In this document: piece after piece, positions 790 through 47,422 of the stretch
How the letters are laid out: every line of letters starts with the position of its first letter
How positions within the stretch are numbered: position 1 is the stretch's first letter
IMG/VR virus record: IMGVR_UViG_3300021495_000007
Source: a virus
Length of the DNA: 53,435 nucleotides
Strand: one strand, 5' to 3'
Made by a program: the position numbers and the translations under genes
Notes under the pieces: model-generated
The model's input: only the letters and a program-made list of their open reading frames with translations
Database searches by the model: none
Told to the model about the DNA's origin: nothing

Positions 790-902
790 ATCTTCATATT
801 TCATGTTCACGCAAATGTTTTTGACCAGGGTATATAATTATATAGGTCAAGGTAAAAAATTTCAATGACAGGCTTGTATGGGCTTCTGATACAATATTTT
901 TA
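790..902. repeat. Dispersed quasi-palindromic element, copy A
   Basis: ATGTTCACGCAAAT 803-816 is identical to copy D 9370-9383. Core GGGTATATAATTATATAGG 828-846. Confidence 0.75.
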
Positions 903-969
903 GGCGGTCTATGATGTAAATTTCAATATTAGAAATTAATATTTAAAATTTTTAAGATATTGAATTATG

Positions 970-1092
970 AAATTGCACCAGACTTCGATATCTCTTGTTC
1001 ATGCAAATGTTTTGTGCTTTAGGTATAATTATATACCCTTGTGTATTTTATTCGCACTATGGCTTTGTATTTGCGTCTCACACGATATTTTT
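970..1092. repeat. Dispersed quasi-palindromic element, copy B
   Basis: Left arm AATTGCACCAGAC...TGTTCATGCAAATG; core AGGTATAATTATATACCC 1021-1038; right arm TTCGCACTATGG...TTGCGTCTCA. Confidence 0.8.
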
Positions 1093-1179
1093 CGGTAGTC
1101 ACTGATGCAATTCCTGAAATTCATAATTGGTAATACAAATCTTGGCAATTTCGATCATCGCTTCTTACCTCTTTCACTA

Positions 1180-1292
1180 TTCGCTGATATTCAATGATAG
1201 ACGCAATGTTTTTGTCTTCCTATACTTTTATATTACCCACATGAAAAAATTTTGATGACGGGCTTCTATTTGCATCTCACGCAATATTTTTG
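1180..1292. repeat. Dispersed quasi-palindromic element, copy C
   Basis: ATAGACGCAAT 1197-1207 is the reverse complement of ATTGCGTCTAT in copies E, F and G. Core CCTATACTTTTATATTACCC 1219-1238 is one T longer than the copy H core. Confidence 0.75.
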
Positions 1293-1899
1293 ATAGGTCA
1301 TAGACTGAAAATCCCACTTGCAGTTTCGAGTAACACGAGGGATGAAAAGGATAACATTATGTAAGATTACTATGAAAAGATGATAGGGAGAATTGTTAGG
1401 GATATGAAAAGGGATAAAAGCGGTAACACCTCGTGTCATCTCTTGAGGGAAATGCACAGATTTGTACATCATACTTAAAAAATTCTTTAAGTGACCGAAA
1501 ATGATTTTATGTCGGGTCTAATCTTCTTTCCATGTCTACCCGTATGTATGTTAGTTTTTGTATTTTTCAATCTCTTATGAAAATCCTTATTTCCTTCCCT
1601 TTAGTTTTATCATTCCTTCCTTTTCCTTTTTAGGTTTTATTATTGTTTTATTTTTAATTTTATTTGTTTATAGGTTTTTATTTTTGAAAAGAAGCCCGTA
1701 AATGTAAGATTTCATGTTTATCTACAACATAAATAACAACAAAAAACAATAAAAACAACTAAAAACCAATAGTATAAACTAAAAAACACATACATAAAAG
1801 GAAAAGGAATAGAAGAAATTATTAATACAATATATAATATAATATATAAAGGCAAAAGATTAAAAGAATAGAAGTAAGGATTACAGGTTAGAACCAAAG

Positions 1900-1919
1900 T
1901 AACCACATTATTTTTATAG
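1900..1919 (+). promoter_or_regulatory. Probable BRE/TATA-type promoter, copy 1
   Basis: TAACCACATTATTTTTATAG matches 2191-2210 at 18/20 and lies about 30 nt upstream of the ATG at 1948. Confidence 0.6.
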
Positions 1920-44284: not shown

Positions 44285-44311
44285 TAAATATATTGTTATG
44301 CAATATTAGAA

Positions 44312-44797
44312 TTAGTGTGTTGATATGTTAGTAGCATCATAATCTACCGACTCAGTGACCAAATCACCAGCAGCTGTGGATGTTCTATATGAATGGAATT
44401 TAACACCATAGATTACCCTATTGTAATCTGCAGAATTGCTACTCGATGTCGTATTCATCAAAATCTTACAAGACTGAAGACTCTCACCATACATACCGGT
44501 AGCAGCAAGTAAATCAAGATGACTGTTATTACCTGCATAAATGAATTCATTGTAAGTTGCATTTTTACTATATAGATTACGCTCTAATGTACCTGTGACC
44601 TCCTGCACACCTTCAATCATCGAAACAGCATCTCGTGAACCAACAACGAAAATTTTATCTATATCTACAGAAGTATCCATCGTAAGAGAATTCAGCAATG
44701 GATCTCTGCCATCGTGCCAGATACTTTCATTAGGAGCGGATTCTAATCCTATTCTAACTCGATTCTTCCAACCTTTGACAGCCCCAAATTCAGGCAT
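44312..44797 (-). CDS. Tail tube protein
   Basis: 161 aa, GGAGGT RBS, tube-like motif VGSR...EG...VTGTL, canonical position. Confidence 0.75.
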   Translation of the reverse strand: MPEFGAVKGWKNRVRIGLESAPNESIWHDGRDPLLNSLTMDTSVDIDKIFVVGSRDAVSMIEGVQEVTGTLERNLYSKNATYNEFIYAGNNSHLDLLAATGMYGESLQSCKILMNTTSSSNSADYNRVIYGVKFHSYRTSTAAGDLVTESVDYDATNISTH

Positions 44798-44843
44798 TTT
44801 AATCTACCTCCATACTATTTTTTATTGTTATTTTTAATATCAG

Positions 44844-47264
44844 CTATATTATAACAGTGGGTTCAGGAGAAGTATGTTTACGAACCCTTAGGTTTTTTAT
44901 ATATGCATGTGCTTTGAGATCAGATCCTGTATATTTTCCTCCGATATTCAAAAAATCTAAAGTTGCAATTCCTGAAATATCAAGATTAGTATTAAGATAA
45001 GTTTCAGTGTAAGATAAATTTTGAATTGTAATATAAGCGGTATTAGAAAGACGCTTTAGAGAACATCGTAGCCAAACTCCAACAGTAGGATCATTACACC
45101 AATAGTCAGACTCTTGAAGGCTATTACCAATAGATATAGCGAGGCGAGAAGTAGGTTGAGTATTACAAAAAAGTGAAGATCCCCCATAATGTTCAAAAGC
45201 TATAAAATCCGATATCGAATTGAAAGTACCGAAATCATTAGACGCTCCAATAAAAAACAAACTACTGGGAATAGAAGATTCGAGATAGTATTCAAATTCG
45301 AGAGCAAAATTATTGAGACTCATTGGATGGTAAGCATAATCATCTGAGATAATTCGATTAGTATGAATATCCATACTTGCAGCATCGGTCTTAGCATATA
45401 AATATTTCGAATTGCCAGTTACCCATTTACTCGTATCTAATAGATAACCTTTGATAGCAGATTGATTACAAGTAGCATATCCTATCGCGCAACCTGCAGT
45501 AGAATCAGAAGTAGGACAACCAAAATACCACATTCGAATAGTGTCCCCACCTATATCATCTTTAGCTATAACCGCATTTTCGATTCTATAACCATCCCAC
45601 TCACCATCAGGGGCGAGATCCATAACCGGATTCTCGAAATATCGCTTCCAATTCACTAAATCCGTACTATATAGAAAGCCCAATTTCCAGTGAAGACCAC
45701 TCGACTGCCCATTATATCCCATAATATACTTACCAGATTCTATTTCACAAATTTTTGCATTCGCAACTCCATGATCATCCCAGGTAAACGGACCATCGCG
45801 TTCAACTACTGGATCGCCACCATTAAGTGGTGTCCATCCTGTTTCTCCATCACTATCACTTGTTATAGCTCCATAAATAGCAAAGAGGGGAGCTTTTGTA
45901 CCTTCCATATACATCACCCACCTGCCATCAGAAAGTTTGATAGCATATGGAAGAACCATAGAATACGGACTTTCAAGATTAAAATCACTCGCTGTGAGTA
46001 TTGGATTTCCGGAATACTTTGTCCAGTTAATACCATCAGAGCTTTCGGCTATGCCTATAGCATAAGAACCACCCGCCTTTCCGCCATAAAACATGATATA
46101 ATCATTTGTACCTCGCTTTACAACTGAACCAATATTAACATCATCAGCATCCCACTCTCCAGCAGTGCCTTCTAATACAGGATTATTTGGGTCCTTTGTC
46201 CAATGAATGCCATCATCGCTTGTTGCTCGTCCTATCCGCCCGATCCCTGAAGCGTCTTTCGCATCGTAGTACATAATGTATTTCCCATTCTCTCGCACCA
46301 AATAGCCTGTCGCATTTATCATTAATGTAGGATCTCTAACTCCAGAAGAATCCCACCCTGAATCAGACTTGATAAGAACGGGATTCCCTTCATAACGAGT
46401 CCACGGTTTTAATTTAACAACATCAAAAATTTTATCATAGTAAACAGGAGAACTACCAGTCTTAAAATCATCAAAGAAGTCAAAGGTTGCATCTCCATTA
46501 CTACTTGGATGAGGACCAGTATCTCCATAAATCATCCATATATACACAGTACTACCAGCAGGTATTACAGGAATTTTGCACCAAATAACAGCATGATCAT
46601 CGCCCCATGATTCTATCCAGAAAGGTAATTCATTATCACTATTATCAACAAAATGGATATCAGAACCATCATCTGAAGAACTATCAAAATCGAAATTGCT
46701 TGGATCCAATTCTATTTTCACTTGATAATCATATAGTGTCTCACTGGTTCCTAAAATTGTAATCATTTGTCTATTCCCCTTCACAATCTTTAGTTGAGAT
46801 GCATCATAATCAACTGATTCTGCAACAATATCTCGTGCAGCATGAGCAATTCTGTAATTATGAAACTTAACATTGGTAATCACTCGTTCATACCCATCAT
46901 CAACATCATCAGATTCTGGATTCCATAGTATTTTACATTCCAAACCTTCTGTTCCGCCCAATCCTGTTGCTTTTAACAAATCATAATGCGTAGAATCATT
47001 CACATAAATGAACTCATTGTAGGTAGTATTTTTGCTATACAAATTGCGTTCGAGTGAACCAGTAACATCTTTAACACCTTCCACAATGGAAACAGGCAGC
47101 CTACTACCAATTACTGAAATCTTATCTATGTCTACACCCGTTTCGGTAGTAAATGAATTAAGTAAAGGGTCACGACCAGCTTTCCAGATACTCTCGTTTA
47201 ACGCCGAAGATACACCAATTCTAATTCGATTATTCCATCCCTTAACTGCTCCATATTCAGGCAT
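44844..47264 (-). CDS. Tail tube paralog fused to DUF2341 and a five-bladed glycosidase-like beta-propeller
   Basis: First ~160 aa roughly 60% identical by eye to 44312-44797; DYQVKI...DGSDIHF...FWIESW (DUF2341); repeated A.S.DG..W.K...NP(V/I)L propeller blades with RDP; C-terminal RKHTSPEPTV. Confidence 0.8.
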   Translation of the reverse strand: MPEYGAVKGWNNRIRIGVSSALNESIWKAGRDPLLNSFTTETGVDIDKISVIGSRLPVSIVEGVKDVTGSLERNLYSKNTTYNEFIYVNDSTHYDLLKATGLGGTEGLECKILWNPESDDVDDGYERVITNVKFHNYRIAHAARDIVAESVDYDASQLKIVKGNRQMITILGTSETLYDYQVKIELDPSNFDFDSSSDDGSDIHFVDNSDNELPFWIESWGDDHAVIWCKIPVIPAGSTVYIWMIYGDTGPHPSSNGDATFDFFDDFKTGSSPVYYDKIFDVVKLKPWTRYEGNPVLIKSDSGWDSSGVRDPTLMINATGYLVRENGKYIMYYDAKDASGIGRIGRATSDDGIHWTKDPNNPVLEGTAGEWDADDVNIGSVVKRGTNDYIMFYGGKAGGSYAIGIAESSDGINWTKYSGNPILTASDFNLESPYSMVLPYAIKLSDGRWVMYMEGTKAPLFAIYGAITSDSDGETGWTPLNGGDPVVERDGPFTWDDHGVANAKICEIESGKYIMGYNGQSSGLHWKLGFLYSTDLVNWKRYFENPVMDLAPDGEWDGYRIENAVIAKDDIGGDTIRMWYFGCPTSDSTAGCAIGYATCNQSAIKGYLLDTSKWVTGNSKYLYAKTDAASMDIHTNRIISDDYAYHPMSLNNFALEFEYYLESSIPSSLFFIGASNDFGTFNSISDFIAFEHYGGSSLFCNTQPTSRLAISIGNSLQESDYWCNDPTVGVWLRCSLKRLSNTAYITIQNLSYTETYLNTNLDISGIATLDFLNIGGKYTGSDLKAHAYIKNLRVRKHTSPEPTVII

Positions 47265-47299
47265 AACACTCTCCAGTAATTACTTTTCCGTATAATTAT

Positions 47300-47422
47300 A
47301 AAATCGCATAAGACGCATATATTTAGCCGTGAACAAAATATTTTTACTTATCCTATACTTTATATTACCTTCCACAATAAAATTGCAATGAACATGATGT
47401 ATGGACGTCTCACGCAAAATTT
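47300..47422. repeat. Dispersed quasi-palindromic element, copy H
   Basis: 47306-47328 is a 22/23 inverted match to copy E 19239-19261; core CCTATACTTTATATTACC; on the minus strand it begins at the upstream stop codon. Confidence 0.85.

Follow-up and report, generated by a model that had tools for sequence, protein, structure and literature searches.

Genomic Setting and Number of the Elements

The window analyzed here is the whole 53,435-nucleotide stretch of IMG/VR record IMGVR_UViG_3300021495_000007. Judged from its sequence, it represents part of the genome of a head-tailed archaeal virus: we call the virus archaeal because the window encodes PCNA, an ERCC4/XPF-type nuclease, a prim-pol and NrdD, carries an intron-bearing tRNA that was matched by Rfam and missed by ARAGORN, and contains candidate TATA-type promoters as a further archaeal trait. 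Among the approximately 45 open reading frames (ORFs) scanned in the window, no recognized transcription-factor family was found apart from one Myb/SANT-like protein (Table 1), and none of the scanned ORFs gave a Pfam match to an Lrp/AsnC-family protein.

A preliminary description of this sequence had reported eight dispersed, quasi-palindromic intergenic elements, and nhmmer envelopes placed all eight copies where it had located them. In leave-one-out searches, where a profile built from seven copies was used to find the eighth, every copy was recovered with E-values of 1.9e-9 to 2.1e-18, whereas the best match elsewhere in the window ranged from 0.17 to 2. Since nothing outside the elements scored better than E 0.17, the window holds exactly eight copies and chance is excluded. 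The elements, typically about 115 bp long, all lie in stop-to-start gaps or in the control region and nowhere else; each of the five copies outside positions 1-1300 occupies the gap between an upstream stop and the next start, in agreement with the preliminary description. Ten other gaps of at least 90 nt in the window carry no element.

Table 1. Positions in the window of the eight elements, of the blocks of element E, and of other features.
Feature	Position	nhmmer envelope	Strand	Remarks
Iteron and AT-rich region	1-470			Next to elements A-C
Element A	783-905	790-898	+	Core near-symmetric
Element B	968-1095	970-1089	+	All five blocks, symmetric core
Element C	1173-1295	1173-1288	+	Both strands score almost equally
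Element D	9343-9466	9345-9463	+	Between RecA-like gene and next ORF
Myb/SANT-like protein, 67 aa	10701-10904			Match to a PHROG family annotated as transcriptional regulator, E 7e-6
Element E	19146-19272	19146-19268	+	Top-scoring complete copy
E outer-left box and invariant CATAT block	19150-19168		+	Alignment columns 5-23
E inner-left site (TGCAA-type word), then T run	19175-19191		+	
E core	19197-19216		+	Contains TTTATATA (19206-19213)
E A/T run and inner-right block (TTGCGTCTA-type)	19222-19240		+	
E outer-right box	19249-19263		+	15-bp quasi-palindrome, TTGCR-N5-YGCAA geometry
Element F	26656-26771	26659-26771	+	Upstream of PCNA gene
Element G	27520-27631	27527-27631	+	Downstream of PCNA gene
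Element H	47296-47425	47299-47420 (best on -)	-	Complete copy, minus-strand gene sense
tnpB gene	48470-49537			

Elements A, B and C are tandem copies spaced about 190-205 bp apart, with B in the middle. Element A lacks the outer-left box, and the word TTTATATA at its left edge (position 782) faces a divergent minus-strand ORF (492-749). The non-coding block 3' of C is very conserved. D fills the gap between the stop of the RecA-like gene (9330) and an ATG at 9469, and E extends from a stop at 19146 towards the Shine-Dalgarno sequence and ATG (19289) that open the nrdD-containing block. Both F and G lack the outer-right box in the window, although at the G locus it is present in one relative; the outer-left box of F shares sequence with the stop codon of the preceding ORF, and a conserved AATATG block of G includes the ATG at 27625. 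Element H is located between a stop at 47421 and the start (47264) of an 806-aa tail gene.

Architecture of the Elements

The layout of the elements is rigid. A dyad axis runs through an AT-rich, TATA-like core, and each arm carries GCGTCT words at a distance of exactly 20 bp. In the profile the hexamer words occupy columns 12-17, 32-37, 86-91 and 106-111, and all pairs mirror each other about column 61.5. By manual count, CATA and the inner-right block of E, F, G and H are separated by exactly 60 bp. The outer-right GCGTCT of E lies exactly 20 bp past the inner one. The symmetry could be quantified from the leave-one-out searches, since seven of the eight copies also scored on the opposite strand (23-51 bits). 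Because C, G and H scored nearly equally on both strands and F scored higher on the minus strand, polarity is only weakly defined.

The pairs of GCGTCT/AGACGC words at about 20-bp spacing that had been noted previously hold in part: the words at 19231, 19251, 26669 and 47311 were verified, whereas those at 26689 and 47331 are only degenerate. The 15-bp outer box was found with at most two mismatches at 1072, 1271, 19250, 26662, 47304 and 47404, and nowhere else. Its centre is a conserved TCTCA-type word and not A/T-only, and the inner sites have one good half-site each.

The copies share parts in changing combinations, as the preliminary description had pointed out. Over all 20 nt, and without a mismatch, the core of E is the reverse complement of the G core (27575-27594), while the arms of both elements point in the same direction: a 12-mer at 19157 recurs at 27535, and an 11-mer at 19228 recurs at 27606, as well as at 26740 and, inverted, at 1197. 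E, F and G have an inner-right site that is found, exactly inverted, as the inner-left site of C. A and D have a 14-mer in common, E matches inverted H over an 18-mer, and D matches inverted F over a 12-mer.

The TATA-like word TTTATATA is commoner in non-coding DNA, which makes up 9.4% of the window and contains 7 of its 17 occurrences. In F, G and H its canonical reading points away from the downstream gene. The flipped core had been taken as an argument against a simple one-way promoter. There is no necessary contradiction, since both core orientations place a TATA-like octamer some 27 bp away from the TTGCGTCTA-type block, the predicted start region. No BRE could be named because conservation is lacking upstream of the TATA word.

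Conservation in Related Viruses

The same elements were found at the same positions in five to seven related IMG/VR contigs, and the genes next to D, E and H are the same in all relatives. Mismatch between orthologues amounted to 0.06-0.18 in the conserved blocks and 0.23-0.29 in the spacers. When the PCNA gene was compared across the same six genomes, mismatches were 0.18, 0.107 and 0.324 at the first, second and third codon position, respectively, against 0.10-0.12 for the blocks of F and G and 0.23-0.27 for the spacers; thus, the blocks evolve at the pace of PCNA second codon positions and the spacers drift like third positions. Within E, the A/T run and inner-right block are the most conserved part among orthologues. 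An alignment of 41 distinct population variants of the G locus showed high conservation up to the ATG and lower conservation after it. A second clade (40% GC; NrdD 72% identical) has the same layout with other site words and a CATA-to-inner-right gap of 59 bp by manual count, as expected for a specific factor that co-evolves with its sites.

Each genome carries ten or more copies, always at gene starts, and two further sites were detected in about 30 kb of one relative that extends beyond the window. The copies are mutually very divergent, yet each is syntenic across genomes that differ by 10-25%. This pattern is difficult to reconcile with miniature inverted-repeat transposable elements spreading through intergenic DNA, despite a length of about 115 bp, terminal inverted boxes, an AT-rich interior, multiple intergenic copies and the tnpB gene of the window. 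The tnpB insertion is missing from relatives that all have the elements, no target-site duplication was visible at the element edges, and F, G and A each lack one terminal box; elements of the IS200/IS605 type, moreover, are not known to rely on inverted repeats at their ends. We regard such an origin as extremely improbable.

The position of all copies at gene starts, together with their number per genome, also argues against initiator-binding or origin-like sites around an AT-rich unwinding core, even though inverted boxes flank an AT-rich centre and three copies adjoin the iteron region. A role at the RNA level, as a leader or processing element, would agree with the inner-right and outer-right blocks falling in the 5' leader. 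Fold z-scores of the elements (+0.46 to -1.68) were no better than those of shuffled sequence, RNAalifold gave 0 consensus pairs on 17 sequences, and no Rfam family matched the elements. Taken as one alternative, an origin or RNA function seems very unlikely.

Core Inversion and Mosaic Junctions

The preliminary description had also proposed that the elements might be res/att-like (or hix-like) sites of site-specific recombination, with the core as an invertible segment. The exact inversion of the E core relative to the G core with unchanged arms, as well as the inverted arms around a short core, would fit such sites. No recombinase had been seen in the window, which our Pfam scan of its approximately 45 ORFs bore out, and neither tyrosine nor serine recombinases (PF00589 Phage_integrase; PF00239 Resolvase) were found in five related contigs (G001-G005, together a pan-genome of about 84 kb), in a search that recovered its positive controls. 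None of 7 metagenome contigs covering the E locus and none of 47 covering the G locus (54 in total) had a flipped core, contigs revealing only the majority state of a locus. The flip is fixed, and it is also old, as the orthologous cores in G004 have diverged independently since. With neither a recombinase nor a flipped locus detected in these sets, and with element positions fixed and syntenic in all relatives, we find an inversion or recombination site hardly credible.

It is a different matter whether the elements serve mainly as linkers, providing homology for cassette swapping between related viruses, with promoter function being secondary. Both at the left edge of F and at the right edge of G, homology to relative G003 stops within about 5 bp; 45 contigs show at least four different sequences downstream of the G element; arm variants assort independently among the copies; and the orthologues of B in G001 and of F in G002 have replaced arms around a conserved core. 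However, homology alone needs neither block-wise conservation nor a TATA core nor fixed spacings of 20 and 60 bp, D, E and H keep their flanking genes in all relatives, and junctions at promoters would be expected to arise wherever an intergenic sequence is conserved. We therefore give very little credence to a primary linker function. The element edges at mosaic junctions and the independent assortment of arms fit ordinary homologous recombination between promoter cassettes, and on our best reading the cassettes also mark junctions where gene cassettes are exchanged. The mixed arms and the flipped core would reflect old recombination or gene conversion between quasi-palindromic paralogues on both strands.

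A Putative Promoter/Operator Cassette Under a Proposed Common Factor

We propose, with a probability of roughly 0.6, that the elements are promoter/operator cassettes co-regulated by one putative oligomeric factor. A regulon-wide operator module around a TATA-like box was one of the two options of the preliminary description, and it is favored by the purifying selection on each block and the rigid spacing, as well as by synteny, the lack of RNA structure in the folds above and the enrichment of the TATA word in non-coding DNA.

According to this model, the virus would rely on host RNA polymerase and every element would be a self-contained cassette. The AT-rich core at the dyad centre would supply the TATA box, and the conserved A/T run with the TTGCGTCTA-type block about 27 bp away would be the melting and start region; by analogy with halovirus HF2 (see below), the start site in E is predicted about 27 bp from the TATA centre. 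The T run preceding the core, in E a candidate archaeal terminator, probably ends transcription of the upstream operon. Sites of the factor would be the GCGTCT/AGACGC words, which come in pairs at a distance of exactly 20 bp on each of the two mutually inverted arms; the 15-bp outer boxes (TTGCR-N5-YGCAA) would be bound by the same sequence-specific oligomer. This factor, probably virus-encoded, would clamp the TATA and start region and thereby switch all cassette-driven operons together, namely those at the three tandem copies beside the putative origin, those of the blocks for replication and nucleotide metabolism, and those of the tail block. We lean slightly towards global silencing or gating. 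The predicted start is overlapped by one of the sites, and operons of the early region, of replication and of the virion all have the same cassette, which is why we prefer this mode of action.

The symmetry might instead arise because plain bidirectional promoters fire both ways, giving sense mRNA and an antisense counter-transcript. There would be no dedicated regulator in that case, and the conserved blocks would only provide each direction with its TATA, melting region and initiator. The opposite-strand matches, several of them nearly equal to the forward ones, agree with this idea, as does a core orientation that is not coupled to gene direction; moreover, reverse promoter activity is reported for HF2 class II and some class I repeats, with long counter-transcripts being made (PMC8707807). 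The outer boxes, however, lie 45-55 bp from the core, past any basal promoter element, and are still conserved; they are also optional: F and G do without the right box, which one relative has at its G locus. Nor would a basal promoter need GCGTCT four times at fixed 20-bp phasing, and we consider bidirectional firing alone rather unlikely.

Within the cassette model, a doubtful extension is that a virus-encoded, tetramer-like factor occupies the four phased sites, with about 110 bp of DNA wrapped or looped around the TATA box. Such a cassette could work in either TATA orientation, its T and A runs could insulate neighboring operons, and it could act as a portable junction for the exchange of gene cassettes. 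If so, an entire archaeal virus genome would be under one global on/off clamp, with a logic like that of phage P1 or L5 repressor networks placed on archaeal TBP/TFB machinery.

Comparison with Known Systems

On this reading, the cassettes would be a more elaborate version of known archaeal-virus promoter repeats and not a DNA-inversion or recombination switch. This kind of system is already known, since repeated promoter cassettes are documented for HF2, whose intergenic promoter repeats are the closest tested precedent. Two classes of intergenic repeats, class I of 58 bp and class II of 29 bp, are described for HF2 and other haloferacalesviruses (Russ, Pfeiffer and Dyall-Smith, 2021; PMC8707807). 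In the parts of that report considered here, the HF2 repeats were experimentally shown to be promoters, transcription starts at a G inside a conserved CGTCT-containing motif, sequence and position of the repeats are conserved among relatives, and extra conserved motifs are proposed to bind virus-encoded regulators (PMC8707807). As far as described there, both systems comprise repeats limited to intergenic DNA upstream of gene blocks in an archaeal tailed virus, with identity blocks between variable positions, a TATA motif rich in A and T (TATA-like here) and conservation around the start (predicted here); both are conserved in sequence and position in relatives, and in both some copies act, or here would act, both ways. 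In contrast, there is no sequence homology, and the present elements are twice as long and dyad-symmetric, with up to four copies of one word at 20-bp phasing and optional outer 15-bp boxes. Here one class serves early-region, replication and virion blocks, whereas HF2 has two classes, and one paralogue has an inverted core; promoter activity was assayed in HF2 and is predicted here.

The outer boxes resemble the operator sites of the archaeal Lrp-type regulator Ss-LrpB, a 15-bp palindromic box with the consensus TTGCAAAATTTGCAA that occurs as three regularly spaced sites (PMC1802622). They have the same 5+5+5 geometry and a near-identical half-site (TTGCR ... YGCAA), but their centre is TCTCA-type instead of weak and A/T-only, the inner sites have only one good half-site, and no Lrp-family gene is among the scanned ORFs. 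The likeness may concern how the elements work, not membership in the family.

Genome-dispersed repressor sites are also known from temperate phages, as in the C1 operators of phage P1. For the stoperators of cluster A mycobacteriophages, one phage protein is described as using many genome-wide sites in short intergenic spaces to act on many operons (PMC9283540). The present elements share with them, as far as described, many dispersed intergenic sites and one factor, here proposed, that controls many operons at once. Stoperators differ in being single asymmetric sites of about 13 bp that are monomer-bound and act on elongation in bacteria, whereas each locus here combines several sites in one symmetric module, with a predicted archaeal TATA box at its centre. 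SIRV1 promoters, reported to be activated by host Sta1 bound beside the basal elements (PMC1635249), likewise combine an archaeal viral TATA promoter with dependence on a sequence-specific factor, as proposed here; they have neither a repeated cassette architecture nor dyad symmetry, and the factor is putative in the present case.

Apart from a few haloviruses and Sulfolobus viruses, next to nothing is known about how archaeal tailed viruses regulate their genes. The present clade gives an unusually explicit cis-regulatory code, one rigid 115-bp module that is conserved across dozens of environmental variants and recognizable in the second clade with changed site words. The elements are a concrete bait for a regulator search and a natural test of TATA orientation in archaeal promoters, and they show where the virus lineage exchanges gene cassettes. 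The word TTTATATA also occurs 31-45 nt upstream of gene starts that have no element, at 2247, 2879 and 53361.

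The eight elements form one family with a common architecture

All eight dispersed intergenic copies were confirmed where the preliminary description had placed them. A profile built from any seven copies recovered the eighth with E-values of 1.9e-9 to 2.1e-18, while the best match of these leave-one-out profiles in the rest of the window had an E-value of 0.17 or worse. Opposite-strand scores, taken as a measure of dyad symmetry, were obtained for 7 of 8 copies. The exact matches reported between copies were also reproduced, including the perfect 20-nt reverse complementarity of 19197-19216 (E core) and 27575-27594 (G core). 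An inner-right box with one mismatch at 23515, within a membrane-protein ORF, was taken as a chance occurrence and not as a further site.

Aligned in gene-sense orientation, the family was almost gapless, with the block order outer-left box, CATAT, inner-left site, T run, AT-rich core, A run, inner-right block, AATAT and outer-right box. The AGACGC/GCGTCT words occupied profile columns 12-17, 32-37, 86-91 and 106-111, being spaced by exactly 20 bp within each arm, with column 61.5, at the core midpoint, as the mirror axis of every pair. By manual count, the distance from CATA to the inner-right block measured exactly 60 bp in each of E, F, G and H. In either core orientation, the centre of a TATA-like octamer lies some 27 bp from the TTGCGTCTA-type block. 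Blocks of this type are located, e.g., at 19229-19240, 26741-26750 and 27606-27615. Among orthologues, conservation was highest in the A/T run. The outer boxes, quasi-palindromic and 15 bp long, have TTGCR-N5-YGCAA geometry and, at up to two mismatches, were confined to the elements. Modules proved to be optional across copies: A has no outer-left box, and the TATA word there faces the divergent ORF 492-749; F and G have no outer-right box, and both run directly into a Shine-Dalgarno sequence or a start codon. The outer-right box is present in the G orthologue of the related contig G002.

Coordinates of the elements and of other features of the window
Feature	Position	Strand	Remark
Element A	783-905
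Element B	968-1095
Element C	1173-1295
Element D	9343-9466
Element E	19146-19272
Element F	26656-26771		before PCNA gene
Element G	27520-27631		after PCNA gene
Element H	47296-47425	-
Plus-strand block	~1.9-28.1 kb	+	replication and nucleotide-metabolism genes
Minus-strand block	28.2-53.4 kb	-	tail and virion genes
PCNA	26778-27518		Pfam
tRNA	4587-4691		Rfam, 42 bits
Myb/SANT-like protein	10701-10904		67 aa
tnpB	48467-49531		precise insertion
Candidate replication origin	1-470		adjoins elements A-C

Virus, relatives and host

The window has a G+C content of 33% and, besides PCNA, gave Pfam matches to an ERCC4/XPF nuclease, a primase-polymerase, an anaerobic ribonucleotide reductase, an RNA/DNA ligase and a TnpB-type protein. 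The tRNA called by Rfam was missed by ARAGORN, and fits an archaeal-type intron-bearing tRNA. TTTATATA words were enriched in non-coding DNA, with 7 of 17 occurrences falling within the non-coding 9.4% of the window, and were also found 31-45 nt upstream of the element-free gene starts at 2247, 2879 and 53361. The window belongs to an archaeal head-tailed virus using host TBP/TFB-type promoters.

Neither DNA nor protein matches to the window were found in the GenBank phage collection. Seven IMG/VR contigs, collinear with it at 70-95% nucleotide identity, are close relatives. One of these, G001 (66.5 kb), has roughly 30 kb of additional sequence that separates the window's end from its start (G001 35214-65021; L042-L044), and the window is therefore a fragment and not a whole genome. 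This additional region carries genes for a terminase, a portal, a 788-aa ligase-domain protein, a transaldolase, an alcohol dehydrogenase, a radical-SAM/SPASM enzyme, a glycosyltransferase and sugar modification. In the window itself, the candidate origin has short iteron-like word repeats with periods of 17-51 nt, then a stretch of A/T only that has palindromes on either side. A DUF2341/glycosidase-like insert of the 806-aa tail protein (44842-47003) is absent in G001 and G002, where homology resumes at 47003.

A search of 185,579 species genomes with the terminase returned no relative, and the closest named NrdD relative, a 'Woesearchaeota' MAG protein with 52% identity, was not informative. 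In the genome collection the element pattern matched a single record, a 2.6-kb contig assigned by binning to a Guaymas 'Ca. Altiarchaeales' MAG. This contig is a fragment of a related virus and holds the control region orthologous to A-C. Two short weak matches apart, the rest of the MAG showed no similarity to the window, and no CRISPR link was found in it, one spacer-like match being without a repeat array. The putative link to Altiarchaeales comes from binning. A 2.9-kb contig of the same MAG (L081) consists of one open tape-measure-like reading frame; an element-like sequence inside this frame (2761-2878, 31.7 bits), the only extra match of note in the MAG, might be a chance match or a promoter internal to the genome of another virus.

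The elements are syntenic and under constraint

The same elements were found at the same positions in the relatives. Sites beyond the window's set were also present: two within the additional 30 kb of G001 and, in G002, one that lies upstream of the ligase gene. Orthologues differed at 0.06-0.18 of sites in the conserved blocks versus 0.23-0.29 in the spacers. In the six genomes in which PCNA codon positions 1, 2 and 3 differed at 0.18, 0.107 and 0.324, respectively, the blocks of the flanking elements F and G differed at 0.10-0.12 and their spacers at 0.23-0.27, so that constraint on the blocks equals that on second codon positions. Scanning metagenomes with the 19-nt core yielded 58 loci, 54 of them E or G loci, and in 41 distinct G variants conservation was high through the element to the ATG and collapsed beyond.

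A more distant clade (NrdD 72% identical, 40% G+C, encoding PolB) has three elements with the same block order and a CATA-to-inner-right spacing of 59 bp, and its site words differ, e.g., TGCAC-type in place of GCGTCT. Judged from the sequences, word drift within a constant geometry is the pattern expected of a co-evolving specific DNA-binding factor. Scanning IMG/VR for the two-block pattern gave true elements only in the clade of the window virus; eight other matches failed the profile. A remoter virus group (L067-L069; NrdD 52% identical) encodes a tyrosine integrase, with host-like sugar-metabolism genes beside it on one contig, and no element of the family was detected within the 7-13 kb of sequence covered.

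Arm mixing probably reflects exchange among copies; a recombination-site reading is not supported

The preliminary description had noted that parts are mixed between copies, and this held: arm variants assort independently, and all four combinations of both outer-left types with the inner-right types exist. In the orthologous B of G001 and F of G002 the arms have been replaced with the core unchanged. Element edges coincide with mosaic junctions, homology to the related contig G003 ending within about 5 bp of the F left edge and the G right edge. Among 45 contigs, G is followed by at least four alternative sequences (window 27632-27855; L084-L141), which makes the N-terminal part of the 166-aa gene a swappable cassette.

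The proposal that the copies are res/att-like or invertible recombination sites was not supported. No tyrosine or serine recombinase domain was found in five related contigs, in which positive controls worked, nor among the window ORFs scanned. No alternative core orientation was observed either: 7/7 E-locus and 47/47 G-locus contigs have the core orientation of their own locus, and what looked like exceptions were 1-3-nt indels or diverged orthologues. In the related contig G004 the E and G cores have diverged independently, which indicates that the flip is old and fixed. The simplest account of the mixed arms and the flipped core is, we infer, homologous recombination or gene conversion among quasi-palindromic paralogues on both strands, which could pair in either register and would occasionally flip a core.

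A MITE origin was rejected given that the copies are very unlike each other yet syntenic, and target duplications are absent. In addition, the alignments of G003, G001 and G002 run unbroken through the insertion site with no tnpB, and the relatives without this insertion all have elements. An RNA hairpin or processing site was dismissed as well: RNAalifold on 17 sequences returned zero consensus pairs, single-sequence folds were no better than shuffles (z from +0.46 to -1.68), and Rfam gave no match to the elements. A cruciform reading was rejected.

The elements as probable, elaborate promoter-operator modules

The nearest tested precedent is provided by the halovirus HF2. According to the published account (PMC8707807), its intergenic repeats, of 58 bp and 29 bp, keep both sequence and position across related viruses, all nine have promoter activity, and some fire in both directions. 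Class I repeats, as described there, have a TATA motif at about -26 and start at a G within a conserved CGTCT-containing motif, mutation of which abolished activity; extra conserved motifs were proposed as sites for virus-encoded regulators. By analogy with HF2, the core would be the TATA box, with starts predicted near 19236 in E and 27609 in G, and the A/T run would be the melting region. The T run that precedes the core could plausibly serve as an archaeal terminator for the upstream operon. Both the mirror-symmetric word, fourfold and phased, and the optional outer boxes exceed any basal promoter and are for this reason read as putative operators for one oligomeric factor. The suggestion of an operator module around a TATA-like box is supported at the level of sequence. 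The elements are best read as a more elaborate form of already known virus-specific intergenic promoter repeats.

In geometry and half-site the outer boxes resemble the 15-bp box that the Lrp-type regulator Ss-LrpB binds at three regularly spaced positions (PMC1802622). This likeness would be functional only: the centre of the box is not the same, and no Lrp gene turned up among the window ORFs scanned. Since one cassette type serves the three tandem copies by the putative origin, the replication blocks and those of the virion, a global switch is a more natural reading than a temporal cascade, and the dispersed repressor sites of mycobacteriophages (PMC9283540) are analogous in logic to such a switch. 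The poor BRE region argues for the factor being an activator; the site overlapping the predicted start argues for a repressor. Pfam and PHROGs searches of about 45 ORFs gave the Myb/SANT-like protein as the sole regulator-type match, and an Atlas search with a basic 98-aa ORF returned nothing.

Directly downstream of element C lies a block of about 260 nt (1296-1560) with 90% identity among four genomes. Substitutions in it show no codon phasing (12/11/6 for the sole long ORF, on the minus strand), and a short plus-strand ORF is interrupted by a stop in one relative. This block probably represents either a non-coding RNA or a signal at the DNA level, with the three tandem cassettes driving it.
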